The notes below the pieces were generated by a model that worked only from the letters and a program-made list of their open reading frames with translations, was not told where the DNA came from and ran no database searches. From NCBI GenBank assembly GCA_054600435.1, contig BAAIJX010000019.1, positions 186,001-250,000 on the forward strand: 64,000 bases of DNA, given 5' to 3'. Positions within the stretch are counted from its first letter, which is position 1. Every line of letters starts with the position of its first letter. Positions 26,615 through 54,170 of the stretch are shown one piece after another. The translations under genes and the position numbers were made by a program. Origin of the DNA: Neophaeotheca triangularis. Its lineage: Eukaryota.

Positions 26615-27010
26615 TATTATTCGTAACTATTATAAACAATACTAGGCCCGACACCGCGCCTTCTCATAACACCTTAGTAATGCTAACGAGACTCGTTACA
26701 TTATTCGTAACTATTATGAACAATGCTAGGCCCGACACTACGAATCCTACCTATAGTGTTATCGCTATAGCCGCGTTATATTATTCATATCCTTTACGAA
26801 TAATGTCTTCCGTTACCTCATAACACCTTGTCGTCACATTATTCATAACCGTTATGAACAATACTAGGCCGTTACCCTATAGTGTAGTGTTATCGCTACG
26901 GCCGCGTTATATTGTTTATATCTATTATGAATAATGTTACCCGTTACCTCATGACACCTTAGTAGTACGCGCCGAGCTCGTCATATTATTCGTAACCGTT
27001 ACGAATAATG
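26615..27010 (+). repeat. Array of 6 palindromes with 31-57 bp spacers downstream of integrase, copy B
   Basis: Cores at about 26615, 26699, 26779, 26837, 26910 and 26984. Confidence 0.9.
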
Positions 27011-27140
27011 CCTTTACCTCCGTGACACTTTAGTGTTATATACTACATGTTAGCTAACAACGTGTAGTCACTACTCGTATTACTAGCGCATGAGTTAGTA
27101 ACATGTAGTCGACACGTGCTCTACTAGCTAACGTAGCTAC

Positions 27141-27150
27141 CTATAAAAGA
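27141..27150 (+). promoter_or_regulatory. Putative internal TATA box for ORF3, copy B
   Basis: CTATAAAAGA followed by a CT-rich leader; the same motif is at ~43823 in copy A. RIP can create TA dinucleotides, so this is tentative. Confidence 0.5.
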
Positions 27151-27302
27151 GGCCTCCTCTTCTACTCTACTCCCTCTACCTCTCCTCTCTCTCTAATAGT
27201 AACCACTACTACTACTATTACTCCTTCTTCTCTTTCTTATACCAAGACATTATTAACACTAACTATACTATACCTAGCTAACTAGCTGTTATTAGTACTA
27301 CT

Positions 27303-28550: not shown

Positions 28551-28910
28551 TGTCGTGGTAACTCCTATACTACATTTATAGGCGTACTAGTTTTGCGGTA
28601 TTTGCTTTATCATTACCCCTTCACATACTTATGCCTCCCCCTACACTAGTACTTATATCTTAGACCTACCTACCTACCTAGATAGACACATACAGAATGA
28701 ATTACGACTACTTGAATTGGCCTCTATACACTATAACTAACCTAACTAATCTCTAACCCCCGACGCATTATTCGTAACCGTTACGAACAATCCCTAATTC
28801 TCGACTACACCTAATTCCTAATCCTACTACATTGTCCGTAATTGTTATGAATAATACCTCCCTAAGCAAAACTAGTCTCCCGGCTTCTCGAGTACTCTCG
28901 CTATTCGACA
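28551..28910 (+). repeat. Gypsy copy A 5' LTR (360-bp variant)
   Basis: TGTCG...TCGACA followed by the same TATTTAGAGC junction as copy B. Confidence 0.95.
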
Positions 28911-31900: not shown

Positions 31901-32262
31901 AGGTAGACTAAGTCGTCATATATATACCGATACTAGTCGTGGAATAGTTATCGAAACCCTATATCCTTAGAGAGCTATATACTTACTACGCTTCCCTCGA
32001 AGTGCGAAGAAACCTATTAGGTAAAGTCACCTACCGAGTTACTAGCGAGGATAGTTTAGCGACTATAGACTTTATCCCTAGTATAGGGATTCGTCGACTA
32101 GTGGGTTCAGATTCTAAAGCTAGAGACCACTTCTCCCTTAATAGCGTCGGTATATATATAGTACATGTAGATCGGGGCGCGTCTTCTATTCGTTCGTTAA
32201 AAGGTAGGGTAGATAAGTAGGTTCGATTACTACTACTAATACCTACCGAGAACTAAGCAAAT

Positions 32263-32601
32263 CATTATTCGTAACCTTTATGAACAATCCTACTATTCGC
32301 GAGACGACTAATAACGCGACTAGTACCTAAGTATTATTCGTAACTACTACGAATAATGCCTCTAGTCACATGATATCTAGACGCTCCGCTAACTCTATGA
32401 CTAGGACCCGAGCATTATTCGTAACTACTACGAATAATGTCTCTAGTCACGTAAGACCTAGGTACTCTACTAACTCCGCGACTAGGAACTAAGCATTGTT
32501 CGTAACCGCTACGAATAATCCCTCTAGTCACATAAGACCTAGGCACTCTACTAACTCTATGACTAGGACCTGAGCATTATTCGTAACTACTACAAACAAT
32601 A
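32263..32601 (+). repeat. In-frame array of 5 palindrome-containing units in the protease-RT linker, copy A
   Basis: Cores at 32263, 32332, 32413, 32494, 32575; one more 81-bp unit than copy B. Confidence 0.9.
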
Positions 32602-34572
32602 CCCTAGGTAGGGTCTCCTACATATAGAGGTCTAGTATAATAGTGGATAGTGTGAAGCTCTTATAGAGTGTGAAACCTTTAGAACTTATAGCTCTCGCCT
32701 CCGACCCTACCTCACTACTAAAGGAGAATTTCAGTGTTATAACTATAGCTAAATAGAAGGTAGACAAGGTAGTGTCTATCGACGACTTAAGTACTATCCT
32801 GTCCGAGATTCCTAGTAGATAGTTAGATTAGCGAAAGAAAGCTATAGAGCGCTAGATTAAGAGTATACCGAAAGATCTTATCGCTTACTCCGAGTATAAT
32901 AGCTACTTCAAACCGCGATATATATAAGAGCTAAGAGGCTATAGGTTAACCCTAGAGTAGATAGTAGGAGTAATAGTTGATATCACGCTCTTACCGGAAG
33001 AATATCGGCTGTTCGAAGCGATATTAGTAGCCCGTGAGCTAGCCCTTATATAGGACTTCAAGGAGTATAGCATAATCCACGAAGACATGTACTCTCTAGT
33101 CAAGATAAGAATAGTACCCTATAAAGCCTAGTAGGCCAAGACATATCCTATACTAAAAGCTTTATCTAGGGAGCTCGTTAAGATGTTAGAAGACTAACTA
33201 AAAGCTAGTGTCCTTAAGTATAGCTAAGGACAATACTAGAATCCTTAGTTTCTAGTTAAAAAGAAGAATGGTAAACATAGGCTAATTAACTTAGCTACTA
33301 TCCTGAATTTAGTTACGGTTCGAGATGCTATAATGCTACTAGATCTCGTAAGCTTTATCTACTATGTTATAGGTAGACTACTCCTCTCACTATATGACGT
33401 TTTCTCTAGATATGACGAAATCCGGTTACATGAAGAAAGCTACGACATGATAGCTATTATGACTCCATTAGGGCTCCTAAGGTAGACAACCTTACTAATA
33501 GGCTAGATAAACTCGGTAGCTATCTTTTGCCGAGTCATGATGTAGATACTCATAGTGCTATATCTACATGACGCCGTCCTATATGTCGACGACATCATCG
33601 CTATTAGCGACTATAGTGACTCCTAGGGCGACCCTAACCCTTTACCTAGTATTAGGCTCCTAGTCTATAACTATATCTAGAAACTAGACTGACTACTCGT
33701 AGACATAGAGCGAGCTAGATATACTATCGCTATAGGGAAATCGTACTTCCTTTCCGAGGAGCTTAAGGTTATTAGCTTTATATACACCCCTAGTAGTACG
33801 AAGCTGTCGCGCTTAAAGGTTAAAGCTATCGCTAAGTAGACTAAGTGTCGCATATTACGTGAAGCTTATAGCTTCATTAGAATGTACACATACTATAAGT
33901 AGTTAATCTAGGGATTTATATAGCGTATGAGACCAATTATTGCGCTTATGTAGAAAGATGTGCCTTTTATCTAGGGACCGGAATAAGCCGCGGTAATAGT
34001 AGACCTAAAAGAGTAGCTAATGAAATTCCTAATCGTAGCCCTAGTTAAGTACGGCGTAGACGTAGGCTAACTAGTTCTTATAGTCGATACATGTAGTACT
34101 AGCTAGGGACTTTACTTATAACAAGAAGTTACTAGCGCGAAAAGACGAGTTATCTAGTACGATAGCGGTCTCTAGAATGAGGGCGAGTAGAAATACGATA
34201 CTGTTAAGCTTAAGTGCTAGGCATTAATGATCGCTCTTAAAAGGTTATAGCTATACCTTTATAGTACGAGGTTTGTAGTCGAAATAGATACTAACATACT
34301 AGTTACCTAGCTTAATAAGGTTACCTCGGACATACTAAATGCCATGGTAACTCGCTAGCTAGCTTAGATTTAACTATTTGATTTCGACATACGACACGTC
34401 GCTAGTACAAAAAATGTTATTACTAACGGCCTGTCCTAGAAGTCTAATGGGCCGGCTAATACTAAAGACATTAACGACTAGGTTAACGTCTATCTCGACA
34501 GCATTTCGGTAGGGCTGCCCCTAGTACTAGGCCTAACGTCTACTATTAGTAGAAATAGAACACCGGCCTTAG

Positions 34573-34991
34573 TGTTGCGATCCTACAAGGTAGTCTTATA
34601 GGTAGAGCTCATAGCAGAAGAGGAGAGATATCGAAGAAGGCTAGTAAGGGTGTTTCCTTTATCATAAGGATTTCAAAGATACGTGAAGTGTCGCTATAGA
34701 CCTTTTAGTAAGATTGTAATATGAGTTAAACACAAATCTCTACCTAGGAAACATCGCTAGCTATATACATAGGAGATTCGTGTTAGATTAGTCCTTAACT
34801 AATCCATCGTGCTTAGGATTAGACTGATCCTAAGTGCCCTAGCTTAGACTTAGTCTAAGTCTAAGCGAGTATACTTAGTTAAAGTCTAAGCGAACGTCTT
34901 AGCTAGTTCTAAGATCACGTGACTAGTAAGCTTTAGGGTTAGACCCTAGCTTAGACTAGGGATTCTAGTTCTACTTAGCTTAGCTGTAACA
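34573..34991 (-). repeat. Chromovirus 3' LTR
   Basis: Direct repeat of 41296-41714; adjacent to the polypurine tract. Confidence 0.95.
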
Positions 34992-35075
34992 CTATCCCCC
35001 TTTCAGCCTAGCTTCGTCCTCGAAGCCTGATAAAGTTCCGTTATTCCCCACATCGTTTTGTTATCAAGTTTCGCG

Positions 35076-35675
35076 ATGTCTTCTACCCTATCCCATAAAC
35101 AGTAACGTCTTAATCTTTCGGCTAAAATCGAGAAGTCTAGAACAACTAACATAGCACCCTGTTTAGCCTACCGATCTACGAGGAAATCGCCTTTAGCCGA
35201 ACTAGTACGATGTGTGATTAGTGCTCGATCTAGTCAGTGTTCGGAATATATATGTAAAGGGTATACTAAGTGTAACATAAAGCTTAGTTGTCCTAAGTAG
35301 GAAAAATGGAGAGATTCATGCAACAAACTGTAATAGTAGTTAGAGGAGTGTAAGGAGGAGGAGCTCAAGCTTTTATAAAAGCTACACGAGCGTTATTCGA
35401 AAAAGTTGCGGTTATAGAAATAGCTTCGTCATGCTAAGGGTCGCACGGAAACCGCGGTGTCTAGAGAGTTAGAGGATTTAGAGTAAGTAGATCGGTTAGA
35501 GGAAGATCTCTTAGGTCTAGTTAACACTAGGGTTGAGGTTGTATAGCGTCTAGGCTTTATTAGTATTCTAGAGATGTCGACGTAGGACTAGAGTGCTATC
35601 GACAGCTTAGATCTTCCTTCCGAGCTTTAGGATTTCGGTCCTAATAATATTGTTGTAGGGCCTTCTAGTAGTTAA
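35076..35675 (+). pseudogene. Antisense accessory ORF of the chromovirus: 199 aa, six-Cys Zn-cluster-like motif plus coiled coil, RIP-disrupted
   Basis: 600 nt from ATG to TAA without frameshift. Internal stops are all TAA/TAG, revertible to CAA/CAG/TGG. Motif C-x2-C-x13-C-x8-C-x2-C-x7-C: four Cys intact, two read TAC/TAT. Confidence 0.7.
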
Positions 35676-38600
35676 GTAAGTTGTCCTTAGGTTCCTAAGT
35701 GTTTTTACTTATGTAGTAACCTTTCCATTTCACGAGGTAGTTCTGACCGTCCTTATCTAGAATCTTTTCGACCTCGTACTTAGCTTCTTCCTCTAGTAGA
35801 TCGTAGTAAAAGGTGTCTTAGATTAGTATTTCGGGGTCTACTAGTTCGAGCAAGGATATATGGAAGACTAGGTAGATTCTAGCATCTTTTAGAAGTTAGA
35901 GGAGGTAGTTAACCTTTCCTCTTTATTCTTCAACTAGAAACGGTCCGACTTTGACATGGTCTAGTTTTCGTGTTCGTCTCCTTGTCTTCAGGTTTTTCGT
36001 GAGTAGGTACACCTTATCCCCCTTCTTAAGCTAAGGTGCCGTTTTGGAGTCCTTATGTCTTTATGACTCGAGTCGTCGCTACGACTATGTGATTTTGTCT
36101 TTCGCCTATTCATGTGCTTCCTATAGCTACGAAGACGTTTGTAGGGCTCTTTCCGCGAGTGGTCCTGGCTTTAGTTCTATGAAAATGTTAGGGTCTTTTC
36201 CGAAATTTGCGTAGAACGGAGTTATGCCTGTTGTCTCGGAGGCATTATTGTTGAGTGCGAGTTGTACTATAGGTAAGAGTACTACCTAATTGTCCTGAGC
36301 GTAATTGACGTAATATCGTAAGTACGTTTCGAGGGATTAGTTTGAGCGTTCTGTCTATCTGTCGGTTTCTAGGTGAAATGCTGTTGATAGCTTATGTTTC
36401 ACTCCGATTGCTAAAATCAAGGTCTTCTAGTAGTTAGATGTGAAGAGCTTGTCTCTGTCCGTAATCAGAACCGTAGGAATGCCGTAGTATCATACTAATC
36501 TATCGAGAACAAGGTATCCGAGTTCCTCTATAGTGATTATCTCGTTATAGGGAACGAAATGTGAATACTTCGTGAGTCTATCGACCATGACTAGAATTGA
36601 ATCATAGTCCTTGCTTATTAACGGGTCCTTAGATCTTAGTAACTTGACGATAAAATCCATTATGACCTCGTTCTATAGTAGATCTAGTGGCTCCTAGAAT
36701 TGTAGGTTTCTATACTTAGCATGTCTCGAAGCTTTGTTTTGTTAGTAGCTCATACATTTCTTGATGTACTCTAAGACCTTCTGTCTCATTCTAGGGAACA
36801 CGAAGTTGCGTCTAATGTGTTCTACTGTTCTAGCGATTCCTAGATGTCTATTAGTAGGTCTATCGTGGTAGTCCTAGATGTACTAGCATTCCTTCTCGTT
36901 TAGAACCCTAAACTTCCTATGTTCGATAGGGAATTCTTCGGTGTTATCCCTAAGTACTCGTAGTACTAAGTTAAATTCTTAAGGGTTAGCGCTTAGGCTT
37001 CCGTCCTTATTAACTTTCAGTATATAGTGTTACTATAGAAGGTGCCCTTCTATGTAGTCGCTTCTTCTACTTAGCGCGTTAGCGCGCCTATTGTCTTTTC
37101 TAGGAGTGTAGACTATGTCGAACTTATATTGTCCGAGTAGCTCTAACTATCTACATTGTTAGTGTGATAGTTCCTTAGTAGTTATGAAATATTGCAGGTT
37201 TTTGTAATCTAAGTAAATAGTCAGTCTAGTTACTCCTTCACAGTATACTCTCTAGTATCGCAATACTATAACGATTACGAGCAGTTCTTTGTCGTAGATC
37301 TCGTAATTCTGTTCTGCTAGTGACATCTTCCTTAAGAAGTAAGCGATAGGGTGTCATTTGCTTTTAACCTCCTATGTGAGGCAAGCTCCTATTGCTCTAT
37401 TAGAGGTATCTGTTTCGATTTAGATAGGTCTCTTAGGGTTAAACATCCTAAGCGTAGGGATAGTCGTACATGACTCCTTAAGCTTATCGAAGGATTGTTG
37501 TTAAATCTTTCCTTATACGAATAGTGTGTCCTTCTTCGTGAGGTTAGTTAGAGGCGTAGCGAGCCTTGAGTAATCCTACATGAATTTCTAATTATAGTTA
37601 GCTAATCCGAGGAATGCTTAAATGTCCTTAACTGACTTAGGTATTAGCTATTCCTCGATCGATTGAGTTTTCTTCAGGTCTATTTAGATCCTAGTAGTGC
37701 TAATCATAAAGCCTAGAAAGTCGACTTCCTTCTTATAGAACTCGTACTTCTCTAGTGCTATTCTAAAGTCTACTTTGTTAAGTCGTTCGAACACTATGTG
37801 TATGTCCTTAGTATACTGTTCTCGTGATCCTTTTATGAAGACTAATATGTCGTCGATATAGGCGATGATAGTGATGTCGAGTAGGTCTCGTAGGATGTCG
37901 TTAACGAGTTATTAACAGGTTGCTAGGGCATTCGTGAGTCCTATAGGCATGACCTGGAATTCGTAAAGTCCGTAGCGCGTTCGAAAAGCTGTTTTCCACT
38001 CTTCCCCCCTTACTATTCTAACTAAATAGAATATATCTCGGAGATCGACTTTAGTGAACTAGTGTGAACTAGTGAGTTAGTCTCTTATCTTATCGATATT
38101 AGGTAGTAGATAACGGTTTTTGGTGGTGATCGCATTAAGTCGTCTGAAATCGATAACTATTCGTAGTTTTCCTCCTTTCTTCGGAACGAAAAATAGTGGT
38201 GAAGCGGCTAATGAAGTGGAGGGTCGAATCCATCCTTTCTTCATTTTTTTATCTAGCTATCGTTATTACTCTTCGAGCTCTTTTTCAGATAGCGCGTAAA
38301 GTGGCCCCTATAGTATCTTCATACCGGGCTAAATGTCGATTCGGTAGTCCTATAGTTAATGTCTAGGTAGAGCGGCTACTCCTTCCTCTTCCTAGAAAAG
38401 GCGCTTCTATTTCCTAAATTCTCTAGGGATATCCGAAGGTACGTGACTTCCTTCCTTAACTCTTACTTACTAGTCTGTTTAGGCTAGTTCGGTACCTATA
38501 GAGTCCGATCTAATTCGTATTAGTATCGTAGTCGATTAGCGATATGTTTCGTTGATCTACCTTCTCTTATCTACTGTCGATCGCTACTAGCGCGTAGGGT

Positions 38601-41295
38601 AGGTTGTAGTGACGCAACTATACCTGTCGAATGTAAGTACTCGTTTTCTCTAATCCACTATAGGATTATGTCGTTCTAACTAAGGAGTGCCTAGAACAAC
38701 GTCATGTCTAGCTATAGGTATAACGTCTAGGATAATTCGCTCGTGATGCTTTTAGAAGATAAGTAGTAGCGGTACTGTTTCGCTATCTACGTTAGGTAGT
38801 GATGAGCCGTCTACAGCTATCAGTTCGTACCCGCTATCTGTTTTCTTCTAGGTAGCTAGCCTATACTAATATACGAATGTTTCCGAGATAAAGTTTCCGC
38901 TAGCTCTAGAATCTATTATGGTAAAGGTTTCATATCTGTCGACAGTACATGTTATTTAGAAGACCGTTCCTAATACTATTTCGTGTTAAGCATTTGTGCT
39001 GTTTAGTTCCTAATGCTCGCTCTTAGTAACAGGTCCTATTCGTTTTTTGAGAAGTAGGTAGATGAATCTGCTATTTCAAGAGAGACTTCCTAGTAAAGGG
39101 GTCCGTCTCGAGGTTTGATCATAACTTTTCCTTAGATTACGTGTGTAGTGATAGGTCCTCGTGTAGTTGCTTTAATGTGTCCGAGAATCATTCTCTAGTC
39201 GACTAGTAGTAGAAATCTTTCGTATAGTACTATCGTCTATTAGTCTAAGGAATCCTGTACTTGTTTCTTCATTTCTTGAAGCGTGATTTCTTCTTCTCTC
39301 TATTGCTCCTAGATGAGCTAGAATTCTCTATAATGATTCTTGACTATCTTAACTTGTTGTCTCATCGTGTATAGGATTCGTATCCTATCTAGCGTAATGT
39401 AGCCATTTTCTCTATAGAAGGTACTTCCTATTAGTGGCCTATCCTAGACAAAGGTAGCGGTGTCATACTCGACAGCGACCTTTTAGTAGTCCTAGAACAT
39501 TACTCGTAGTCGTATAAGTATAGCTTTAAACTGGTTAGGTTCCAAGCATCGTTTACCTTAGATCCTTGGGAACACTTCTTCGTACGATTATACGATATAG
39601 GTAACCATTTTCTTGATTAGTGCGGGTCCTTCTACAATGAACTCTAAGGTATCGTTGTCGTCGGGTTCTTCGTCGTTAGTATATTCGTATTCGGAGTCAT
39701 CTTCGGAATCTATCACTATTATGTCTTCTTAAGATTCTGGAATTTCTAGAGGCATCGATAGTCTTAAGGGGCTAATCTCTAGTATTAGTACGATCATAGT
39801 AAGTTCTAGTGTCTAAGATATTTCTTCGTTGTCTAAGTCGGGTGTTAGTAGTACTATTATTAGTAATAGTACTTAGTTTTCTTACAGTTTGTCGTCCTCC
39901 TATACAAATAGAGGTAGGGACCTTCCTTAAGCTACATTGCTATCGTCCCTTAACTACTATAGTGGTTAGCGTCTTGACATCATGTTGAGTTCCTTCTAAG
40001 GTTTACGTAGTTGTTTAAGTTCCTCCTCTACTTTAGCCTTAATCCTATGATTCAGGTTTGCTATCTGATTAGCTACTTAGATCATAAGGTTAAAGTGTTC
40101 TTTAGTCTACTCCTCATAACTAACTAAGTCATTATGAAACTCCCTAAGCTTCTAGTATTGCTCGATTAGCGTATCCGTTCCGGACTTTAGGGTAACTCGT
40201 TCGTTAACGTTCACTTCCTTCCGAGGTCTAATAGGTATTCCGTTAGTCACTAGTCCCTGACTTTTATGTACTAAACAGTAATCCCTCTTATAAAACCTCT
40301 AGTGAAGTTCGTCGTACTCTAGTTCTTTATAGGTTCTAGTGATGTCGTAAGCTCTATAGCTCTTATCGGTAGGAGAGTCGTTATCCTATCAGGTCAAAAT
40401 CGCATTAACCTCCTAGTGTGGGCGCATCTGTTTCCTATAGTAGTCTCGTATATAGTGCCCTATCTTATAGTAGTTATAGCATTCCGGTCCGTTCCGTTTC
40501 TTGCCTAGGGCGTTCTGTTTACCCTATCCTCTATCCCTACCCTTTCTAGGATACTATTACATAGAGTCGAGTTCTATCGCATCAGGATCGCGACGTTGCT
40601 AACCGACAGGCTAGCTGCTAGTAGTATAGCTAGTTCGTCTACGAAATTGTCTAGTGTGGCGTTTTTCCATAAACCGTTCGTAGAGCGCGTCGTCAACTTC
40701 GATCGCCGATTTGATCATTCCGGGGAGAGTTAACTAATCGCCTCCGTAGCGCATGAGTTCGTCCTTCATGTTGTCCTTAAGTCCTCGGTAGTACATGGTT
40801 ATGAGAGCGTTATCGTCCTAGTTAGTCTTAGCTAAGTGCTCCTAAAACTTAGTGGTATACTAAGAGGTAGACGTTTTCTATGTGAGGTACTGAATCATTT
40901 AGATAGCAACTTGTCGATCGTTGCTCAATCTATAGACGTTACGGATAACCTTAACAAAAGACTTCTAGTTCGAGAATAGTCCTTTAGGGTCGATTCGTTC
41001 TATGAGGAAATCCGTAAGCTTAGGGCGGATCTAGTGTTAAGCTTCTCCTCGAAGGAAAGAAGTAGTAGTAAGAGGTTGCTTCTACTTACTAACGCTCTCT
41101 ATGAGAAAGAACATTATTATCTAGTTAACCTAGTCATCTAGCTTATTGCGTTCGCCGTAGAAGTAGTCCGGTTTGGTAACCTTATTAGTTGTTATAGTCG
41201 ATACTCCTCGTTAAGTGCTAGCGACACTTACGTCTTAGTTATCAGATAGGGACATACTTACCTATTAATCTCTCTTTCCTAGAGGATATTCAAAG

Positions 41296-41714
41296 TGTTA
41301 CGATCCTATAAGGTAGTCTTACGGGTAGAGCTCGTAGCGGAAGAGGAGAGATATCGAAGAAGGCTAGCAAGGGTGTTTCCTTTATCGTAAGGATTTTAAA
41401 GATACATGAAGTGTCGCTATAGACCTTTTAGTAAGATTATAACATAAGTTGAACACAAATCTCTACCTAGGAAACATCGCTAGCTATATACATAGGAGAT
41501 TCGTGTTAGATCAGTCCTTAACTAATCTATCGTACTTAGGATCAGACTAATCCTAAGTGCCCTAGCTTAGACTTAGTCTAAGTCTAAGCGAGCATGCTTA
41601 GTTGAAGTCTAAGCGAACGTCTTAGCTAGTTCTGAGATCACGTGACTAGTAAGCTTTAGGGTTAGACCCTAGCTTAGACTAGGGATTCTAGTTCTACTCA
41701 GCTTAGCCGTAACA
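41296..41714 (-). repeat. Chromovirus 5' LTR
   Basis: Followed on the minus strand by CTTTGAA rather than a TGG tRNA primer-binding site. Confidence 0.95.
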
Positions 41715-43428
41715 CTTAGCGATAGGGCTGTCCCTAGAGCCGGTCCTAACGTATACTAGTAACGAAAACCGAGGATCTACCTATATAGTAGGGTTACTCC
41801 CGGTATAGGGCCTAACGCCTATAAGCGATAAAGATAGAGCTTCGACTCCTTCTAATAGGGAGGGGGAACCTACTAACGATAATGTGCTCGACTCTACCTA
41901 CTCTAAGCACTCGTAAAATGTCGCCTACTAGCTCACGACTATACGAAGGCCTATAGACCTATCTAAATCGGAGTTCTAGGCATTTAAGCGATAAGCGATA
42001 TGATTCCTAGTCTATAGTAACTAACTGTTTCGCTACATGAATAGGAACTAGCTATTAACTCGCGTAGTAGATAGAGAGTAGAACTAACTACAGATAATAA
42101 AGGAACTTCATAATAAGGGTAGTTACTATAGAAGAGAAGGGACATACTAGAAAGTAGTAGATAGGTACTAGTAGGAAGGCATATATAATACTGTCACAGT
42201 ATATGTCAAGACCTACTAGGAGTATTAGCTACGCGCATAGAACTGATTAGAAGAACCGCTACACCCTACCTACATAAACGTAGTAGGTAGGAAGTAGGCC
42301 GTCGACCTAGTACGAATACCGGAATCCCGTACTTTCTAGTACATTGCTCTTACCCGGGAAGACATATCTAGCTAGGTAGAAGGCCGACTACTACGTAATA
42401 CCGAGAGCTGTAGGCTAGCTCGCTTCCTTTACGAGGATATCATGACTAGACATAGAGTGTTCAGGAAACTAGTCCATGATAGAGGCCTAGAGAACTAAGG
42501 GTAGACTACTATCCTACTCGAAGGATATAGTATCCAAGACATTACGATCTCGCCATATTACCTATAAGCTAATAGTATAGTGGAACGAGGCTACCTAACT
42601 ATCGTTAACGCGTTAGCTAAAGCGAGTCGAGATACTAGACGACTATGGCTAGACCTACTCTATAGCGCGCTCTAGGCTAATAGGACTACTATACGAGCTA
42701 CTACTAGTATGACTCTAGTAGCTATAATCTATAGTAAGGAGCCTATCCTACTAGTAGAGTTGTTATTCCCGACCTAGTATAACATTAACTAGAACGGCGT
42801 TTAAACGACGGAAGACCTACTAGTAGCGTAGATAAAGTAGCTCGAATATTAGGATAAGAAGATAGACGAAGCCCTTCTATGCTTACGATGCCACTACGAG
42901 TTTAATAAGGAGTACTTTAATGAGACTTACTAGATAAGGCCGGAAGAATTAACTGTCGGTGATCTAGTGTTGCTCTTCGACTCGGTACGTAATACTAATA
43001 TAACGGCGAACCGTAAATTCTCCCCTCGCTAGCTCGGTCTATATCGCATTAAAACGGTCTAGGAGAATATAGGCTTATACCGACTCGAGGAGCTTGACAG
43101 GACAGTACTAGATAAGCCGTATACTAGTTAACTATTGAAATTGTTCTATCTAAGACCTAATACACTCGCGAGATAGGACGAAGACGACGTAGACGACATA
43201 GAGGAGTAGGACTCGATGTATAGGGGTAACGCGTCTAACCCTAAGGACATTATCCCGGCTATATAGGAAAGGCCTCGTAGGAGCTAGCGGTTATAACTAA
43301 CTACCGATACTACGCTAGTACCGAGACGGAGTAGTACTAGTTTCGTCTCGATTCCTAGTATTTAGTACGACCTAATAGAGTATGAGCAATTTAGTGACCT
43401 AGAGTCTAATGAAGATTAGTGTGGCCAC

Positions 43429-43692
43429 ATTATTCGTAACCGTTATGAACAATACTAGGCCCGACACCGCGCCTTCTCACAACATCTTAGTAATACTAAC
43501 GAGGCTCGTCACATTATTCATAACTGTTATGAATAATGCTAGGCCTAACACCGCGAATCCTACCTATAGTGTTATCGCTATAGCCGCGTTATATTGTTCA
43601 TATCCGTTATGAACAATGTTACCCGTTACCTCATGACACCTTAGTAGTATACGCTGAGCTTATTACATTGTTCGTAACCGTTACGAATAATG
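43429..43692 (+). repeat. Array of 4 palindromes downstream of integrase, copy A
   Basis: Same array as 26615-27010, lacking two units (~131 bp). Confidence 0.85.
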
Positions 43693-43984
43693 CCTTTACC
43701 TCTATAACACTTTAGTATTACATGCCGTATGTCGGCTAATAATGTGTAGTCACTACTCGTATCACTAGCGTATAAGTTAGTAACACATAGTCGACATATG
43801 CTCTACTAGCCGACATAGCTACCTATAAAAGAGGCCTCCTCTTCCGCTCTACTCCCTCTACCTCTCCTCTCTCTCTAATAGTAACCACTACTACTACTAT
43901 TACTCCTTCTTCTCTTTCTCACACTAAGACATCATTAACACTAACTACACTACACCTAGCTAACTAGCTGTTGTTAGCACTACT

Positions 43985-46900
43985 ATGAGAACCTTCGAGT
44001 AGTTTAGCTTCACTTCTAGACAAGCCTTGAAGTAGCTACTCCCTCCGACCTTTACGACCTCTTTAACCTTATCGATACCTCTAGTACCTACTACTCCGAC
44101 ACCTCCGTCCTTTAGTACCTATACCTACTTCCTTACTTCACATTCTCCTAAACCTATGACTTTACTAACACCTTTTCACTTTAACACTAACACTAATACT
44201 GACACTAACACTAACACCTAACATATCTCTATGACATACTAAGTAACTAACTCTACTTTTCTTCTTCTCCTTACTTTCACATCTCTCTCTCTCTCTTTCC
44301 TATAGTTAAGATCAAGATTACTAACTATAGTACCTAAGTAGTCTACCCTAAAGCGCCTACATACGGGTTCCTAAGCTAGCTCCGGATTAGGTAGTTCGAA
44401 TGAACCTATAGCTCCTAAAAGCCTATACCTTACTTATAGTAGCTAGGCCACTATACGCCCTACCGCTACCTTAGCTATGCCTATAACTATGACCGCGACT
44501 ACGTCCGCGCCTAACACTACTATAGTAGTAAGGTCTACTAATATGAGTATCTACCGAAACTAGGGAGTAACTAACGACTAGGGAGCTCCTATACTCGACA
44601 TGTAGCGATATACCTTAAGCTTTTCTAGTATATAGCTTGAAAACACTATAAAGGAGATACTATAAAAGATCACTACGATGACTAACCTACACGCCCGAGA
44701 CGCTACATAGCTCGCTATACTTAAGATAGTATATGAAGCTAGCGAAGACTAGGACATGTTAGTATACATAGTAGATAACTATGCACGAAGCGACCCTACG
44801 TAGGCCCTAAAAAGAGCTAAGTTTAGGAAGATTAAAGACATGGCTACCTATAGCCGTCGCGACCCGCGTATTACTCGAAAGGAGAACTTCCTCTCTTCGT
44901 GCGGGCTAGTTAATACTACCGAAGCCGTCGCTTCGGAAACCATTAACTACATCTTTATAGCTCCGGAGAATGTGTCCTAGGGATTCATCGATCTCGCTAA
45001 ATATGCCTAGGTATCCGAGTAGACGTTCTAGAAGCTACGTGCTACCGCTAGTATCTAGCTCATATATAGGCTTGTTAAGGAAACTCCTATAGGTTAACCG
45101 ACTAGTAGGAAAGGGAAACCACTCTATACGTTCTTCTACACTAAGGCCGACTTTAATCATGTAGTAGGTATAGACTAGATATCTAAGTTTACGACTAAGT
45201 ATACTACCGACGAGCTATAGGATATAGTGGGGGAACTAATCGAAAAATACAAAAAGATGTGCCCGAATAATCGCGTCCTATACTGAGGACAGGATAGCTA
45301 GCTCTCTTTCCTTACCCGTCCTATAGCCCTAACGACACCTAAAGCCCTAGAGACCCCACGATAAGAAGGGCGCTTCGTTAGCACTATCTCCCTAAGCCCT
45401 ATAGGGTAGCTACGATCTCGAAACACTAGTATGCTACTAATGCCTACGATTAAGGAAGATATAGCATCTCTAGTGTCTATGTTAGAGGAGCTTCGTCGCT
45501 AGCTCTAGGGGTATTACTAGCTAACTTAGTCCTTACCTATGCCTATGTCTACTACCTTAGCCCTTCGTACTCGTACTTATACCCGGTCTACTAGTATAGG
45601 AATGTTAGCTACGCCCCTAGGTATAGCCCTAATATAGGTAGTATAAGGACTATAGCTTAGCGAGTTGCCCTCTCTAAAGCCGGAAGAGATCCGAGTAGTC
45701 ATAGAGGCCTAGTTTACTAGTAATACTACATGCGGTAGTCTACGCGGCGGCCGATGTATATGTGAGGTAGATAAGATAGCCCTACTATGGTTACGGGTTA
45801 TGCTTAGAGCCGATAACGACTAGCGAACCGGTTTCCGCATTACTATAGAAGATAGGGATCGCATAGAGTTATGTACTAGCTATAGTACCTACTACTATGG
45901 CGTGTATACGACCTACTAGAGACTAGTAGCGTAGAGTCTTGGGCTAGTTATCTAAGGGAAAGATGCGAAGACGACTAATAACTACATCTTCTACATCATA
46001 AAACTCCTAAAGCAATCCTAGAAAAACGTCGTTTATAGTAGTATCTACTAGTTTCTAAACACCGAAGTCTAATGCCTACTAGGGATCTCGGCTAATGTTA
46101 ATGACCTAGAGACTTTCGCGTATAAACTAGTTAAGTCCGGCGTGATACGCTACCTCGATAATAACTAGAAAGCGAGGATTGTAGAAGGACTTAGCATCAT
46201 AGTCGCCTAGTATAGAGAATGGGAAAGGAACGGTACTATTAACATTCCGGATTTATTCCCTAAGCTACTAGAGGTCGAGGATCTAATTAAAAGCGAGTTT
46301 AGCATGTATAACGTCTACCTACAAAACAACATGTCTAACCGGGGCTAGTATAGGAACATGTACTATAGCCTGATTTAACAGTACCTTCGCTAGAGCCTAG
46401 TACTAATCCTACTATATGCTCTCTTATACGATAACGGCCTACTTTAGCTAGTGTCCTACCCATATTACACTAAGAACTAGCACCCTAGGGACTCTACTAG
46501 ATTTAGGTATATCGATCTAAACCTAGTGTTTACATAGAATAATAGTACTAGCGTGTACACTATTTAGGGTAGCGTTAGTATCCTTAATGAGTTTAAGGAT
46601 AACTATACTATAGTGGTTAAGGGAATGTACTAGCGCCTAGAGGAGTAGACGAACTTCCTCGTCGCTAATAACCTAGACTATAAGAAAGAGATTATAGCTG
46701 TCGACGACGCGAACCTACCGAAAGACTAGCTCTTAGCCCGGGGTTTAAAATGGTAGCTAGTCCCTTATAAGGCCTTCGAAGTTCGTATTTCTAACCTACG
46801 CCTACCCTATAGCACTACTACGTCAAAAGCCGTTCGCTAACGCATAACCATCCTACCCTAGTTCGTAGGAATCGACTAAGACCATGAGTACCTTTAGAAT

Positions 46901-47416
46901 ACTACTAGTAGAAAGTGGAGCGACATTACTACTACATACCGCGACTTCGTGCCTAGCCCGTTAAGTGTCTCTAGTTACACTACTAAGTATAGAGCTCCTT
47001 ATGTACTATTTCCCGCGACCCTATATCTAGCGATATAGGATGTATTGTCTAGAGTAGCTGTCAGCGAATTGCGGTATACGAGCCCTAACGTCTAGCTAGC
47101 TCTATGTACTATTACTATAGCTAGCCCGTATCGTATCTAGGAGTATATTCGGGGAGTCCGTTAAGACGCTACTAAGGCGTACGAGCGAGCCTAGAGACAT
47201 TAGCGAGACGAAGAGAAGAGGGTGTATTAGAATAAGTCGTTCTACTATTCGGAAAGTTCTAGCTCTACTCTACTACCGTAGGATAAAGGAAAGAGGGGCA
47301 TAATACTAGTAGGATAAGAGGAGCTTGTAGAGGAAATGTAGATTAAGGAGAACTCGATAGTAGTTTAGGGTAGCGCGGTTGCCACGGAGTAGCGAGACTT
47401 TCTAGCTAGGGAGGGA
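43985..47416 (+). pseudogene. ORF3 of copy A: >1000-codon protein with a C-terminal probable 2OG-Fe(II) dioxygenase (PhyH-like) domain, RIP-disrupted
   Basis: One frame from 44342 to the 3' LTR with only RIP-revertible stops. Two-copy de-RIPed consensus: SYPYYTK..GDSTGFRHIDLN (46508-46516)..IQGSVSILDEFEDDCT.VVKGMH..VPCKAFEVRISNPRLPHG (46808)..R (46841) ITILPWFVG. In-frame ATGs at 43985 and 44231; probable intron 44243-44341. True start and stop are uncertain. Confidence 0.75.
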
Positions 47417-47776
47417 TGTCGTAGTAACTCCTATACTACATTTATAGGTGTGCTAGTTTTACGGTATTTACTTTGTTATCACCCCTTCATATACTTACGC
47501 CTCCCCTTACACTAGCACTTATATCTTAGACCTACCTACCTACCTAGACAGACATATATAGAATGAATTACGACTACTTAAATTAGCCTCTATACACTAT
47601 GACTAACCTAACTAATCTCTAACCCCTAACGCATTATTCGTAACCGTTACGAACAATCCCTAATTCTCGACTACACCTAATTCCTAATCCCGCTACATTA
47701 TCTATAACCGTTATAAATAATACCTCCCCGAGTAAAACTAGTCTCCCGGCTTCTCGAGTACTCTCGCCGTTCGATA
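47417..47776 (+). repeat. Gypsy copy A 3' LTR
   Basis: 360 bp; terminal CA changed to TA by RIP; preceded by AGGGAGGGA. Confidence 0.95.
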
Positions 47777-47780
47777 GTAG

Positions 47781-50029
47781 GGGAACTAATCGAAAAATAT
47801 AAAAAGATATACCTAAATGATCGTGTCCTATACTAAGGATAGGATAGCTAGCTCTCTTTCCTTACCCGTCCTATAGCCCTAACGATACCTAAAGCCCTAG
47901 AGACCTTATGACGAGAAGGGCGCTTCGTTAGCACTATCTCCCTAAGCCCTATAGGGTAGCCGCGATCTCGAAACACTAGTATATCACTAATGCCTACGAT
48001 TGAGGAGGATATAGTATCTCTAGTGTCTATGTTAGAGGAGCTTCGTCGCTAGCTCTAGGGGTATTACTAGCTAACGTAGCCCTCGCCTATACCTATATCT
48101 ACTACCTTAGCCCTTCGTACTCATACTTATACCTAGTCCGCTAGTGTAGGAACGTTAGCTCTACCCCTAGGCATGTTAGCTCTACCCCCGGGCATGTTAG
48201 CTACGCCCCTAGGCATGTTAGCTATACCCCTAGGTATAGCCCTAATGTAGGTAGTATAAGGACTACGGCTTAGCGAGTTGCCCTCTCCGAAGCTAGAAGA
48301 GATCCGAGTAGTCATAGAGGCCTAGTTTACTAGTAATACTATATATAGTAGTCTATATGGCGGCCGATATACATATGAGGTAGATAAGATAGCCCTACTA
48401 TAGTTATAGGTCATGCTTAGAGCTAATAACGACTAGCGAACCGGTTTCCGTATTACCGTAGAAGATAGGGATCGTATAGAGCTATATACTAGCTATAGTA
48501 CTTACTACTATAGTATGTACGCGACCTATTAGAGGCTAGTAGCATAGAGTCTTAGGCTAGTTATCTAAGGGAAAGATGCGAAGACGACCGATAACTACAT
48601 CTTCTATATCGCGAAACTCCTAAAGCAATCCTAGAAAAACGTCGTTCGTAGTAGTATCTACTGGTTTCTAAACACTAAAGTCTAATGCCTACTAGGGATC
48701 TCGGCCGATGTTAATGACCTAGAGACTTTTATATATAAACTAGTTAAGTCTAGCGTGATATACTACCTCGACAATAACTAGAAAGCGAGGATTACGGAAG
48801 GACTCGGCATCACAGTCGCCTAGTATAGAGAATGGGAAAGGAATAGTACTATTAACATTCTAGATTTATTCCTTAAGCTACTAGAGGTCGAGGACCTAAT
48901 CAAAAGCGAGTTCAGTATGTATAACGCCTACCTATAAAACAACATGTCTAATTAGGGCTAGTATAGGAACATATACTATAGCCTGATTTAATAGTACCTT
49001 CGCTAGAGCCTAGTACTAATCCTACTATATACTCTCTTATACGATAACGGCCTACTTTAGCTAGTGTCCTACCCATATTATACTAAGAACTAGTACCCTA
49101 GGGACTCTACTAGATTTAGGCACATTAATCTAAACCCGGTGTTTACATAGAACAACGGTACTAGCGTGTACACTATTTAGGGTAGCGTTAGTATCCTTAA
49201 TGAGTTTAAGGACGACTATACTATAGTGGTTAAGGGAATGTACTAGCGCCTAGAGGAGTAGACGAACTTCCTCGTCGCTAACAACCTAGACTATAAGAAA
49301 GAGATTATGGCTATCGACGACACGAACCTACTAAAAGACTAGCTCTTAGCCTAGGGTTTAAAATAGTAGCTAGTCCCTTATAAGGCCTTCGAAGTTCGCA
49401 TTTCTAACCTATACCTACCCTATAGCACTACTATGTCAAAAGCCGTTCGCTAACGTATAACCGTCCTACCCTAGTTCGTAGGAATCGACCGAGACTATAA
49501 GTACCTTTAGAATACTACTAGTAGAAAGTGGAGTGACATTACTACTACACACTACAACTTCGTGCCTAGCCCGTTAAGTACCTCTAGTTATACTACTAAG
49601 TATAGAGCTCCTTATGCACTATTTCCTACGACCCTACATCTAGCGACATAGGATGTATTGTCTAGAGTAGCCGTTAGCGAATTGCGGTATACGAGCCCTA
49701 ACGTCTAGTAAGCTCTACGTACTATTACTATAGCTAGCCCGTATTATATCTAGGAGTATATTTAGGGAGTCTATCAAGATGCTACTAAGGCATATAAGCG
49801 AGCCTAGAGACATTAGCGAGACGAAGAGAAGAGGGTATATTAGAATAAGTCGTTCTACTATTCGGAAAGTTCTAGCTCCGCTCTACTACTATAGGATGAA
49901 GGAAAGAGGGGCGTAGTACTAGTAGGATAGGAGGAGCTTATAGAGGAAATATAGATTAAGGAGAACTCGATAGTAGTTTAGGGTAGCGCGGTTGCCATAG
50001 AGTAGCAAGACTTTCTAGCTAGAGAGGGA
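47781..50029 (+). pseudogene. ORF3 of copy B, C-terminal part including the dioxygenase-like domain
   Basis: Colinear with 45231-47416. Keeps the His codon CAC of HxD at 49121-49123. Has a 63-bp in-frame repeat expansion at 48152-48235. Confidence 0.75.
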
Positions 50030-50412
50030 TGTCGTAGTGACTCCTATACTACATTTATAGGCATATGGGTTTTACGGTATTTACTTTGTCATCACCCCTT
50101 TATATACTTATACCTCCCCCTACACTAGTACTTATATCTTAAACCTACCTACTACTTAGATAGACATACATAGAATGAATTACGACTACTTGAATTAGCC
50201 TCTATACACTATAACCGACCTAACTAATTTCTGACCCCTAACCTATTATTCGTAACCGTTACGAACAATCCCTAATTCTCGACTACACCCGATCCCTAAC
50301 TCTTAACTATACCTGATTCCTAATCCTACTACATTATTTATAACCGTTATGAACAATACCTCCCTAAGTAAAACTAGTCTCCCGGCTTCTTAAGTGCTCT
50401 CGCTACTCGATA
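50030..50412 (+). repeat. Gypsy copy B 3' LTR
   Basis: 383 bp with the same 23-bp duplication as 18648-19030. Confidence 0.95.
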
Positions 50413-53400
50413 GTAAGACGACAACTAAGAGAGGCTCGGATAGTGAGTCTACTAACACTACCTCTCACTATGTCTTTATAGCTTTATAGGTAGAGTATGT
50501 CGACGAGTACTTAGAGTAACTACTCCTGTCTTCTACTATAACTAATAGATAGATTGTTGACTTAGGAGCTTCATTACATTTTACGTATGACTTTACTAGT
50601 ATAAGTAAGGTCACACCCTATAATATACTTGTTCGTATTAGTAAGGGCAATATTAGAGCGACACATAAAGGCTCCGTGATGCTTAAAGTTAAAAGTAAGA
50701 GCTAGGAGAAGTATATAGTAAAGAGCTTAGAGTTTACTAGGGTGCTATTTGTCGCTAGTTTAAGCGCTAACCTACTATCGACTTAGGTCTTAAAGTAAAA
50801 GGGCCTATTTTACCGTAACGACAATAATGTCCTATTTAGTAAAGATAGTGTCATGGCCTCTATAGAGGACCATAATAGCCTACTATAGCTAGCTCTAGCT
50901 AGCGGTACTACGTATACTTACACTACATCTTTAAAGGACATCGTACTAGCTAAAGGAAGCGATAATCTCTAGTACCTATACCTTAGCTATACTACACATA
51001 AGAAGCTCCTTACTATAGCTAGTAGTAGAGTAACTAGTATGAGTATAACTAACTCTAAGAACCGCGAGTACTCTATATATATAGAAGTAACGGCTAAAAA
51101 GGTAGTTAGTAGGGTACCTACTCTATACTCTAGATAGCCTTTTAATAAGGTATTAGTAGATATTGTCATAGTAACTATAAATGGTAAGCAAAAGTACTTT
51201 ACCCTAGTCATAGACTCTACTACTATATATAGGCATATCTATAAGCATAAGCTTAAAGGGGGAGCTAAGGTAGCTCTTTAGTAGTACATCGAGTATATTA
51301 AAACATAGACTAGTAGCTATATTAAGGCAATTCGAATTAATAGAGGCCTTAAATTTAGTGGTAATAAGCTCTATACATATTACTAGGACCGCGGTATCTA
51401 CCTATAGGTCATAACCCCCTATAGCTCCTTTAAGAATAGTAGGGCTAAGGTGTCTAACTACCTAGTAGTAACTATAGCACGTAAGCTTATACTAGCTAGT
51501 AAGGTACCAAAACATCTTTAGCTAGAGGTAGTCAAAACTACTGTTTTACTACTAAACTTACTACTCTCTAAAGCTACTAAAGGCATACCTTATACCCTAC
51601 TAGCTACTACTCTAGACTAGAAGGTGAAAAAGCCTTATGTTAGTAACCTTAAGGCCTATAGATATACTACCTATATACTAGATAAGAGTATTACTTAGGG
51701 AGACAAACTAGCTCCTAGAGCTATAGCTAGCTAGCTAGTTAGCTATAAAGGGCATAATATCTACCGTGTCTAGATGCCTTAACTACGTAGGGTTGTCTAT
51801 ACCTTAAACTACAACTTTTAAGAAGGTTCTAGGGGTACTAGTAATACTATTACATAGAACGACGACATTGTCTTTCTCGAAGGTAGCTTACCTTCTAGGG
51901 GTAATAGCGATAAGTACATAAGACTACCGTAATAGCATGACACTACTCTAAGTAGTACATCTCCGACTAGCGACGCTTTATAGACTAGTAACGCTCTAAC
52001 TAGCGACGTACCGTAGACTAGCGATGTTCCGTAAGAGTATAAAGCTTCGACGTATAAGACGTAGCCTACTAATAACGAGCTATAGATGTATATTCTAGAC
52101 TTTAGCTATAAGCGAGAGGGCACTACTAAGTCATAAGCTGAGTTAGTTAGTACTAGCGTAAGACGCTCTAGACGAGTTCGTAAATAGACTAAGAAGGCCA
52201 TTAAATCTTAGTAGTAATAGTAAGAGTAGGACATAGTATGTAGTAGGCTACTAAGGAGTGTATATATAGCGCTAGTTATGGCTATTAAAGAGTATAGAAT
52301 GGGACAAGCTACTCCGGATACCTATAACGAGGCTATTAACTCGGTTAATAGTGAGTACTAGATTAAGGCTATAGAGACTAAGATCGAAGCTTATTAGAAG
52401 CATAGTACCTAGAAGCTTATCTAGCTACTAAAGGGTACTAGACTAATAAGCGGCAAATAGGTATTCACGCTTAAGACCGACGTAACGGACGGCTCTTATC
52501 GGTTCAAGGCTCGCTAGGTAGCTCGTAGTTTCACTTAGACTAAGGGAGTTAATTATAGCGAGACATATATAGCTGTTATTAAGCCTTCGACTATATGTAT
52601 ATTGCTTATAGTAGCTATAGCTGAAGACCTTAAGATCTATTAGTTTAATGTTGTTATGGCCTTCCTAGAAGCCTTAATAGGTAACTAGAAGGTGTTCGTG
52701 TAGTAACTAGTCGGTTTCGAGCAAGGTGACTTAGTTTACTAGCTCTAAAGAGCCCTATATAGCCTTAAGTAGTCTCCGCTCTTATAGTATAAGTAGCTTA
52801 CTAAATACCTCCGTAACCTCCATTTTAAGCCGCTCTAGTCTAATACATATCTGTTTAAACACTAGCTAACTAGGGGCTTCGTTCTTATCTATATAGATAA
52901 CCTACTAGTTATTACGAAGAAGCTTAGCGACATGTAAGACATAGCTTAGGCTCTAAAATAGCGTTTTAACCTTAAGGAGCTTAGGGAGGTTAGTAACTTC
53001 CTTAGAAGCCGTATTATTAGAGACTACTCATAACGTATGATCGACATAGTGTAAGATGTGTACATTAAAAGGACCGTAAAGGCTCTACACCTAGCGGATC
53101 ACAAACTAGTGTACACTCCCCTAGACGCTCGTTTCAAGTAGCTTAAGGACGATATAAAGGCCCTAAAGTCACTACTTAAAAAGTATTAGAAGCTTATTAG
53201 TAGTCTTATGTGGCTAGCAATTAGTACTCGACTAGACATTACTTATATAGTGGGCCTTATAGTAAGACATATAGCTAACCTAACGGAATAGTAGTACGAG
53301 TAGGCCGTACGGTACATATAATACCTAGACATAACTCCGCTTATAGGGATACGACTTAGTAGCTCTAATAAAGGGTAGGAGATGTCTATAACCTACGAAC

Positions 53401-53993
53401 TTACTAGCTATGTCGATATGTCTTATAGCGACGACTTAGACACTAGAAGGTCAACTAGGGGCTACATCTTCTTCCTTAACGGCTTACTAGTTACATAGAA
53501 GTCTAGCTACTAACCTATTATCACTATATCTACTACTAAGGCCGAATATATACAACTTACCATTATAGTAAAGGAGGCCGCTATACTACGCCTTTTACTT
53601 AAGGAGGTAACTAGTTAGTTACTAACGGTATTACTCTATAAGGACAACTAACTAGCTATTAACCTACTAGCTAAGACTAGTAATACCGGTAGGAGTAAGT
53701 ATATCGACCTCTACTAGTACTACATTCGTTAAGAGATAGATAAAGGAGCCGTTATGGTAACTAAGGTAGACACTACTAAATAGGCTATAGACAGTCTCAC
53801 TAAGCTACTAGATAGGTATAAACTAGACATATCTAAATAGCTTATAGACATGATTGAGTGTAAATCTATTTGAGCTGACCCGACGGACACCTACCGGCTT
53901 GCCTTAGTACATGAGTAACTAGTGCTAAACTAGTAGTATGCGGTATTCGTCTAGTATAGGCATAGAAGCCGCAGGTCAGGTGACATGGGGGTG

Positions 53994-54165
53994 TGTTGAT
54001 GTGATTAGCCTGAGGCTCGGTCACGCTAGCTTAGGGCTGCACTAGTAGTGTTAGGTGGTCACGTGTTGTGTCACATGACGCGGCTTTATGAGCCACTCCT
54101 ACTTCTTCGTCTTGTCGTAGCTACCTACATACTTTGAATACTATGACACTTCATACCATTCAACA
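53994..54165 (+). repeat. Copia 3' LTR
   Basis: 172 bp; preceded by ATGGGGGTG and followed by TSD GCTCG. Confidence 0.95.
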
Positions 54166-54170
54166 GCTCG

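Follow-up and report, generated by a model that had tools for sequence, protein, structure and literature searches.

Among the described mobile elements that come closest to the locus reported here are Ty3/gypsy long terminal repeat (LTR) retrotransposons of Phalaenopsis orchids, which carry an open reading frame (ORF) for an AlkB-type 2-oxoglutarate (2OG)-dependent dioxygenase; the report on them describes N6-methyladenosine RNA demethylase activity of the enzyme in vitro and proposes that it acts against host surveillance (PMC9289625). In fungi, DNA transposons (KDZ and others) and Helitrons encode TET/JBP dioxygenases, for which a role in countering silencing or hypermutation has been suggested, and this 2025 survey treats fungal mobile-element dioxygenases as known so far only from DNA transposons (TET/JBP), reporting a retrotransposon counterpart of these transposons as missing (PMC12730594). 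A third ORF between integrase and the 3' LTR is found in the env-carrying Ty3/gypsy errantiviruses (PMC13524379), where it encodes an envelope glycoprotein rather than an enzyme and the hosts are metazoan.

We analyzed a 64,000-nucleotide stretch of the genome of Neophaeotheca triangularis (assembly GCA_054600435.1, contig BAAIJX010000019.1, positions 186,001 to 250,000 of the forward strand), called the window below and numbered from its first letter. It contains an array of Ty3/gypsy-type retrotransposon copies damaged by repeat-induced point mutation (RIP), and a gene in the env position of this element, here called ORF3, is very probably the relic of an element-borne Fe(II)/2OG dioxygenase of the PhyH clan. 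Like the orchid elements, this is a Ty3/gypsy LTR retrotransposon with an extra Fe(II)/2OG oxygenase ORF (PMC9289625); it differs in that the host is a fungus instead of a plant and the enzyme belongs to a PhyH/DUF1479-like clade, joined to a CxC...CxxH module, instead of the AlkB clade. With the TET/JBP transposons it shares the combination of a fungal mobile element with a 2OG dioxygenase of its own, but the carrier is an LTR element and not a DNA transposon or Helitron, and the enzyme is not TET/JBP by Pfam (0/68 homologues). Searches of the open full-text literature, Repbase and subscription journals excluded, turned up no description of a dioxygenase or oxygenase ORF in an LTR retrotransposon of a fungus. 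An accessory oxygenase captured by an LTR element is cargo of a kind known already, and what looks new is a PhyH-clan cargo in a fungal gypsy-type element, that is, a different dioxygenase clade in the env position, with an intact relative of the same layout. Accessory enzymes fixed in LTR retrotransposons are rare and point to a host defense that the element must beat.

The gene is present twice, in a block X (45224-47416) and in its tandem duplicate X' (47774-50028), and was recognized by homology. A phmmer search of 1.84 billion representative proteins with the RIPed translation, in which stops were given as X, returned 367 proteins at E ≤ 1e-3, of which 189 reached E ≤ 1e-10 and 26 reached E ≤ 1e-30 (best, 1.2e-39). 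For the best 150 of the 367 matches, the best stretch lay inside query residues 594 to 1112, mostly from about residue 740 (window 46202-47285), which is the part that the first-pass annotation had marked as the probable dioxygenase. A profile built from 117 homologues, window rows excluded, matched X at 46166-47266 (E = 4.6e-85) and X' at 48794-49876 (E = 1.2e-71), placing on the plus strand at 46166-47266 a RIP-inactivated PhyH-clan Fe(II)/2OG dioxygenase domain. Since each profile match is one unbroken stretch in the frame that a first-pass annotation of this DNA had chosen, neither copy of the domain carries a frameshift. A further protein homology search with the RIPed query yielded just two proteins, and scans of viral contigs and of genome contigs found no relatives. 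A search of sequencing runs listed no RNA run, one DNA run with 0.60 of the words and two with about 0.05.

We then compared the catalytic positions of the two copies with the 117 homologues. The HxD metal-binding motif lies at 46508-46516, where X reads TAT ATC GAT (His to Tyr). Its first His column holds His in 111/117 homologues, with TAT at 46508 in X and CAC at 49121 in X', and its Asp column holds Asp in 116/117, with GAT at 46514 and AAT at 49127. The second motif, PHGST...RRTxLPWF in the family, lies at 46808-46843: the second His (112/117) is TAT in both copies (46808 and 49421), the Gly that follows it (115/117) is AGC in both (46811 and 49424), and the Arg-Arg pair (112/117, then 102/117) reads TAA in both copies and then CGC or CGT, the CGC at 46841 standing 11 codons past 46808. 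Every codon cited in the first-pass annotation was found as it had been read, including the TAT AGC pairs. The HxD...H...R signature proposed there falls on the family's most conserved columns (111, 116, 112 and 102 of 117), and the suggested reversion of CCC TAT AGC to Pro-His-Gly agrees with the family consensus LPHGST, His and not Tyr being the residue expected at 46808 (His in 112/117). The basic residue about 10 positions past the second His binds the C5 carboxylate of 2OG in PhyH-type enzymes. All changes in the catalytic columns of the window are transitions (CAY to TAT, GAT to AAT, GGC to AGC). Because the iron ligands are altered (Y-x-D in X, H-x-N in X', and Tyr for the second His in both), neither copy is active, and with dozens of RIP-type stops in addition both are dead.

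An intact relative of this arrangement was recovered by scanning JGI metagenome contigs with the homologue P0002. The two contigs found, L001 and L002, show 4 mismatches over about 10.8 kb and hence represent one element, which is un-RIPed and assembled as a 10,825-bp circle. In L001, gag (844 residues; Retrotrans_gag 3e-10, Ty3_capsid 3.1e-6), pol (1263 residues; RT_RNaseH 1.4e-15, Integrase_H2C2 2e-12, rve 3e-9) and an open ORF3 of 1069 residues, which follows pol after a 521-bp gap, lie on the same strand. Residues ~650 to 1040 of ORF3 form the dioxygenase domain, with FRHIDID, LPHGAQ and RFTMLPWF intact, and residues 482 to 536 contain the CxC...CxxH motif. Between ORF3 and gag we read by eye a TG...CA LTR, preceded by a purine tract and followed by TGG. 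The gag-pol-ORF3 order of L001 supports the proposed position of a same-strand third ORF, after integrase and before the 3' LTR, and the open 1069-codon frame shows that the region is kept in another element with no frameshifting decay. The window gene has the corresponding setting: RNase H and integrase precede it on that strand, and it runs up to a purine tract and LTR. Block X lacks terminal repeats, reads in the direction of pol and shares its frame with the stretch upstream of it. An intact, clonable L001 ORF3 makes both the substrate and the benefit to the element directly testable. Positions 1-207 of L002 are identical to 10826-11032, an exact 207-bp terminal overlap with a period of 10,825 bp, so L002 is a circle with a single LTR; this could mean that the assembly collapsed the two LTRs into one, or that the DNA was arrayed in tandem or formed a 1-LTR circle.

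A third retroelement context is seen in P0242, a JGI metagenome protein from a 4161-bp contig, in which one uninterrupted frame of 1179 residues joins a truncated copia-type pol (rve, RVT_2 6.5e-71, RNase H) to family sequence. The family part starts at profile position 483, at the end of the middle module, and the join cuts both partners. P0242 may have arisen by rearrangement, may be a chimera of the assembly or may be a genuine copia-linked copy, and we take it only as a sign of the family's association with retroelements.

For the fold we modeled P0008, a homologue of 347 residues that is essentially the domain alone, by AlphaFold2 with 119 aligned rows. The model (predicted local distance difference test score 96.5, predicted template modeling score 0.93) shows the double-stranded beta-helix that the first-pass annotation had anticipated, and homology, the conserved HxD...H...R residues and this confident model all agree on a dioxygenase domain. 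Foldseek gave 111 PDB matches at E ≤ 1e-3; those listed all belong to the PhyH-type Fe(II)/2OG oxygenases, among them DUF1479 proteins, EvdMO1/AviO1/EvdO1, TlxI, FtmOx1, SnoN/SnoK, GriE, PrhA/AusE and EctD. VIA-align ranked GIG2 (6akz) and YbiU (4rgk, 7twe) at the top (Z 17.5-17.8, root mean square deviation [rmsd] 3.0-3.1 over 254-255 residues), followed by a group at Z ~12.7 and below (ColD, SnoN, OkaE, GriE, FtmOx1). Taken more broadly, the likeness to DUF1479 covers GIG2 of Candida albicans and YbiU (4rgk, 7twe, 2csg, 2dbi) at Z 15.5-17.8 and rmsd 3.0-3.5 over 248-255 residues, but identity is 12-14% and these are stand-alone cellular proteins that lack the N-terminal extension and the CxC...CxxH module. 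With the small-molecule oxygenases AviO1/EvdO1, FtmOx1, SnoN and GriE, the domain shares the double-stranded beta-helix and HxD...H...R at Z ~12, whereas those enzymes belong to biosynthetic clusters and act on small-molecule substrates. A PDB sequence search with the family profile gave weak matches at the HGS...RR motif, to 6ec3 (EvdMO1; E = 0.27) and to 4xaa (AviO1), in which the second-His/Arg motif aligns, only at E = 0.052.

Classification by Pfam gave a similar placement. The cut-off of PhyH (PF05721; 22 bits) was reached by 10/68 homologues scanned (P0006, P0008, P0021, P0087, P0017, P0066, P0093, P0203, P0233 and P0198), L001 ORF3 and the window translation both falling below it, and the nearest ESM Atlas clusters are PhyH (score 0.96). 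At the thresholds used, none of the 68 matched Gig2-like/DUF1479 (PF07350), the resemblance to which is structural only, nor did any match Tet_JBP or an AlkB-type family (2OG-FeII_Oxy_2 or related). TET/JBP is likewise absent from the structural matches listed by Foldseek and VIA-align, which by itself does not exclude families outside those listed. The link to TET/JBP or AlkB drawn in the first-pass annotation is not supported, the domain being PhyH/DUF1479-like. Judged by sequence and predicted fold, the dioxygenase belongs to an unnamed family of its own within the PhyH clan and is, by Pfam, neither TET/JBP nor AlkB; its Pfam scores put it at the edge of PhyH, and its closest fold is DUF1479 (GIG2/YbiU).

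The damage in X and X' is RIP-like. Across 43985-47416, TpA/ApT is 2.22, compared with 0.73 and 0.64 in the flanks, and (CpA+TpG)/(ApC+GpT) is 0.35, compared with 1.23 and 1.20. Between X and X' there are 196 transitions but only 2 transversions, together with a single 63-bp indel made up of three units of a 21-bp tandem repeat. Stops had originally been used to argue for the reading frame, and this argument turned out to be powerless: the frame contains 72 stops in 1144 codons (57 TAG, 14 TAA, 1 TGA) against 81 to 155 in the other five, and in 300 dinucleotide-preserving shuffles even the proven coding parts were not distinct (P = 0.12 for the core and 0.69 for integrase; 0.23 for the N-terminal part of ORF3). 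Because most RIP changes are common to the two copies, a two-copy de-RIP merge of X and X' still left 43 stops in the frame versus 54 to 74 in the others and is not decisive. In the dioxygenase domain, 9 of the 22 in-frame stops that X has within well-populated alignment columns, and 13 of 27 in X', fall on columns in which Gln, Trp or Arg is commonest, against a background of 14% of columns; such enrichment is the expectation from RIP of CAA, CAG and TGG codons.

The array that carries these blocks lies within a GC-poor stretch of about 17.5 to 54 kb (GC 0.37-0.43, versus 0.48-0.58 outside). Self-comparison revealed four direct LTRs of about 366 bp, 81 to 91% alike, that start with TGTCG and end with CGACA (CGATA if RIPed); all features given here are on the plus strand. 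Copy E1 (18640-28910) consists of LTR 1 (18640-19030), its 5' LTR, and an internal region (19031-28544) that includes RNase H at 24110-24353 and ends at the equivalent of 45223; an inverted solo LTR is inserted at 24984-25349. LTR 2 (28545-28910) is at once the 3' LTR of E1 and the 5' LTR of copy E2. The 5' internal part of E2 (28911-34548) has 87 to 90% identity to E1 19006-24587; the copy is broken at ~34549-41722 by another element and continues from 41723 with the 3' part of pol (41723-43400, the end being approximate and read from the translation), which encodes the integrase zinc-binding domain and then the integrase core. Further downstream stands block X with the conserved ORF3 core, which ends in a purine-rich tract, TAGGGAGGGA (47407-47416), a polypurine-tract candidate read by eye next to the LTR; GGGAGGGA at the end of block X directly adjoins LTR 3 (47417-47779), the 3' LTR of E2. 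Block X', with its dioxygenase domain at 48794-49876 and 63 extra bases in the 21-bp repeat, is followed by LTR 4 (50029-50415). Because GTAA, again read by eye, borders the whole array 18640-50415 on both sides, a single original insertion followed by internal duplications is suggested.

Pfam searches of the RIPed translations of E1 and E2 detected RT_RNaseH (3.9e-12 at 24110-24353) and, weakly and under the Pfam cut-off, Integrase_H2C2 (E = 0.0059 at 42088-42220, corresponding to about 24914 in E1). RNase H followed by the integrase zinc domain is the Ty3/gypsy order of pol. RVT_1 was not detected by Pfam in the RIPed window sequence, gag gave no Pfam match in the RIPed copies at E ≤ 0.1, and no primer-binding site was recognized in the window element. 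The 3.2 kb over which E1 and E2 were compared contain 299 transitions and 13 transversions, besides indels of 3, 131 and 2 bp. The array is RIP-killed and appears to derive from one insertion of a Ty3/gypsy-type LTR retrotransposon of about 12 kb. The claim that both copies have ~3.4 kb between integrase and LTR needs correction, since only E2 has this region in full: E1 keeps the proximal 1.24 kb and goes from the equivalent of 45223 straight into its own LTR, without 45224-47416. What had been taken for a second copy (47774-50028) is merely the distal 2.2 kb, duplicated in tandem together with an LTR.

Two rearrangements that look independent, one by which E1 lost X and one that duplicated X in tandem with its LTR, share the junction 45223/45224. 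This junction immediately precedes a G-rich purine run, GTGGGGGAAC, and has a short GAYA/GTRG microhomology with the LTR end (sites 45215-45235, 28535-28550 and 47770-47790). An internal polypurine-like site at this breakpoint would be a guess. Between the end of integrase and the putative start of ORF3, a tandem repeat of ~135-140 bp is found (43400-43900; E1 26693-27009), in which E2 is 131 bp shorter than E1.

Upstream of the dioxygenase domain, ORF3 encodes the CxC...CxxH module (45755-45916), whose four columns hold Cys in 73/73, Cys in 71/73, Cys in 73/73 and His in 70/73 full-length homologues. The window reads TGT at 45755 and 45761 and TAT at 45905 and TAC at 45914, the latter two being RIP-type changes of the Cys and His codons. 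The structure model predicts the module to be helical with moderate to high confidence. No known fold was found for it, either by Foldseek against the PDB (best E = 1.0) or by a wide VIA search (best Z 4.3, none ≥ 5 among 48,161 chains). With this module and the dioxygenase domain both in block X, all conserved parts of ORF3 lie within that block. The putative N-terminal part of ORF3 (43985-45223) is present in E1 and E2 and begins at an in-frame ATG at 43985; an alternative in-frame ATG lies at 45257. The ORF may start at 43985, which would put the CxC module at residue ~590, compared with 482 in L001, or at 45257. Searching 43300-45760 in three frames, and its E1 equivalent, against 246 family proteins gave no match at E ≤ 0.1, and a separate search gave one marginal match, P0083 (E = 0.24). 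The single frame of more than 1000 codons that had been claimed for this region accordingly stands for about 504 codons (45755-47266) and does not for the first ~590 (43985-45754), which match none of the 246 proteins. A 2-bp difference between E1 and E2 in a (CT)n run at 44281 shifts the frame of the putative N-terminal part in one copy.

The dioxygenase family is large and unannotated across Pezizomycotina. The relatives of P0008 at E ≤ 1e-10 include 110 longer proteins of 609 to 2000 residues, most of them 750 to 1000, and the named ones are all hypothetical or uncharacterized, save one with the JGI label PhyH. Named sources are lichen-forming fungi, Geoglossum, Coleophoma, Sclerotinia borealis, Botrytis galanthina, Alternaria tenuissima, Chaetothyriales and Coniocarpon, all of which we take to be Pezizomycotina. 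Named homologues include RDW72128.1, RDW66072.1, KAH0563233.1, KAI9765616.1 and KAL9048148.1, and four paralogues are from Geoglossum umbratile. Several 90% clusters comprise 9 to 21 sequences each, and at least 4 paralogues occur in a single metagenome-assembled genome; these numbers suggest, short of proof, a repeated element. If the family is mostly element-borne, hundreds of fungal and lichen hypothetical proteins would need new annotation as genes of retrotransposons. A FastTree tree was computed from 138 domain rows, 16 of 154 having been dropped because they covered fewer than 250 positions of the profile. In it the window pair is placed with P0126 and P0012 (support 96) and L001 ORF3 in a neighboring group, with a warning of long-branch attraction for the window rows. 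Extra domains were seen in P0087, P0203 and P0230 (Ulp1 protease [Peptidase_C48, 5.7e-5], DUF3455 and ankyrin repeats) and may be gene-model fusions with neighboring genes.

As to function, the ORF3 protein of the intact relatives is presumably an active oxygenase made by the element, because the HxD...H residues and the 2OG-binding Arg are kept there. The zinc-type CxC...CxxH module would target this PhyH-clan oxygenase to a macromolecule. It might hydroxylate or demethylate RNA or cDNA of the element, Gag or a host protein, or a chromatin mark, and this modification would aid replication of the element or its escape from host silencing. A benefit to the element is proposed by analogy with the orchid gypsy AlkB enzyme and with TET/JBP of fungal DNA transposons; a counter-silencing role of ORF3 we regard as rather improbable. 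The more far-reaching reading, in which an unnamed and widespread LTR retrotransposon lineage of Pezizomycotina encodes a PhyH-like dioxygenase with a new zinc-type module and thereby blunts genome defense, acting on nucleic acid or chromatin marks or on its own RNA/cDNA, seems unlikely to us. If true, it would make most of the 367 or more hypothetical proteins retrotransposon ORF3s and would provide the retrotransposon counterpart of the DNA transposons that carry TET/JBP.

Several findings weigh against an element gene of this kind. E1 is without the ORF3 core, so the cargo is dispensable for persistence of the DNA. Neither gag nor pol of L001 matched E1 or E2 by tblastn or phmmer, the weak matches of L001 pol in the window being confined to the minus strand of a nested element (36208-38250); the window element and L001 are therefore not shown to be one lineage, and the independent element contexts seen are two, the window and L001/L002. 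Many of the homologues may be ordinary host genes, and the copies in elements may have been captured. The first ~590 codons of ORF3 have neither homology nor statistical frame support. Pfam applied to the window's own RIPed translation found only RNase H and the integrase zinc domain, and L001 ORF3 had no Pfam match at E ≤ 0.01. Finally, most of the solved relatives in the PhyH clan have small-molecule substrates, and no function is established for DUF1479.

Among the alternatives, the one that survives best is passenger capture, in which a normal Pezizomycotina host gene was picked up separately by the window element and by L001, through recombination or read-through, and is useless to either. 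Named relatives that are hypothetical proteins on large contigs (up to 1.9 Mb), the lack of retroelement domains in all 63 homologues of two of the Pfam scans, the absence of block X from E1, and a FastTree tree in which the window pair and L001 ORF3 are not sisters would all fit such a history. We nevertheless regard it as clearly improbable, as two different elements hold the gene in the same place and orientation and with the same CxC...CxxH and dioxygenase architecture, and the 1069-codon frame of L001 is wholly open with its catalytic residues intact. Moreover, protein lengths of 750 to 1000 residues agree with ORF3, the 90% clusters of 9 to 21 members and the four or more paralogues in one genome suggest multiple copies, and all three visible contexts, P0242 included, are retroelement-linked. 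Still less probable, to the point of being hardly credible, is a local accident in which block X is an unrelated gene or transposon fragment that came to lie beside an LTR at this one locus: the absence of X from E1 and the coincidence of both rearrangement junctions at 45223/45224 speak for it, but the intact L001 has the same gene in the same position, and X lacks terminal repeats, abuts the LTR with a purine tract at its end, and runs on the pol strand in frame with the upstream stretch. A chance motif in RIP-scrambled noncoding DNA, conceivable given that RIPed DNA abounds in Tyr, Asn and TAG/TAA and that stop counts single out no frame, has a next to negligible probability and is refuted by the profile matches of E = 4.6e-85 and 1.2e-71 in the predicted frame and by the 367 phmmer matches.

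Two further LTR elements are associated with the gypsy-type array. The one that breaks E2 is about 7.1 kb long (34571-41716), with 423-bp LTRs at 34571-34993 and 41294-41716 that are 94% alike; its minus strand weakly resembles gypsy-type pol at 36208-38250, and the element has no match to the dioxygenase. The other is a RIPed Ty1/copia element that encloses the whole array. Its gag is found at 17470-18639 (Retrotran_gag_2, E = 4.4e-5, under the cut-off) and its pol at 50418-53990 (RVT_2 1.3e-32, Pol_BBD and SH3_retrovirus). The 174-bp LTRs of this enclosing element (17296-17469 and 53993-54166; TGTTG...CAACA) are 98% alike and are flanked by a 5-bp target duplication, GCTCG.

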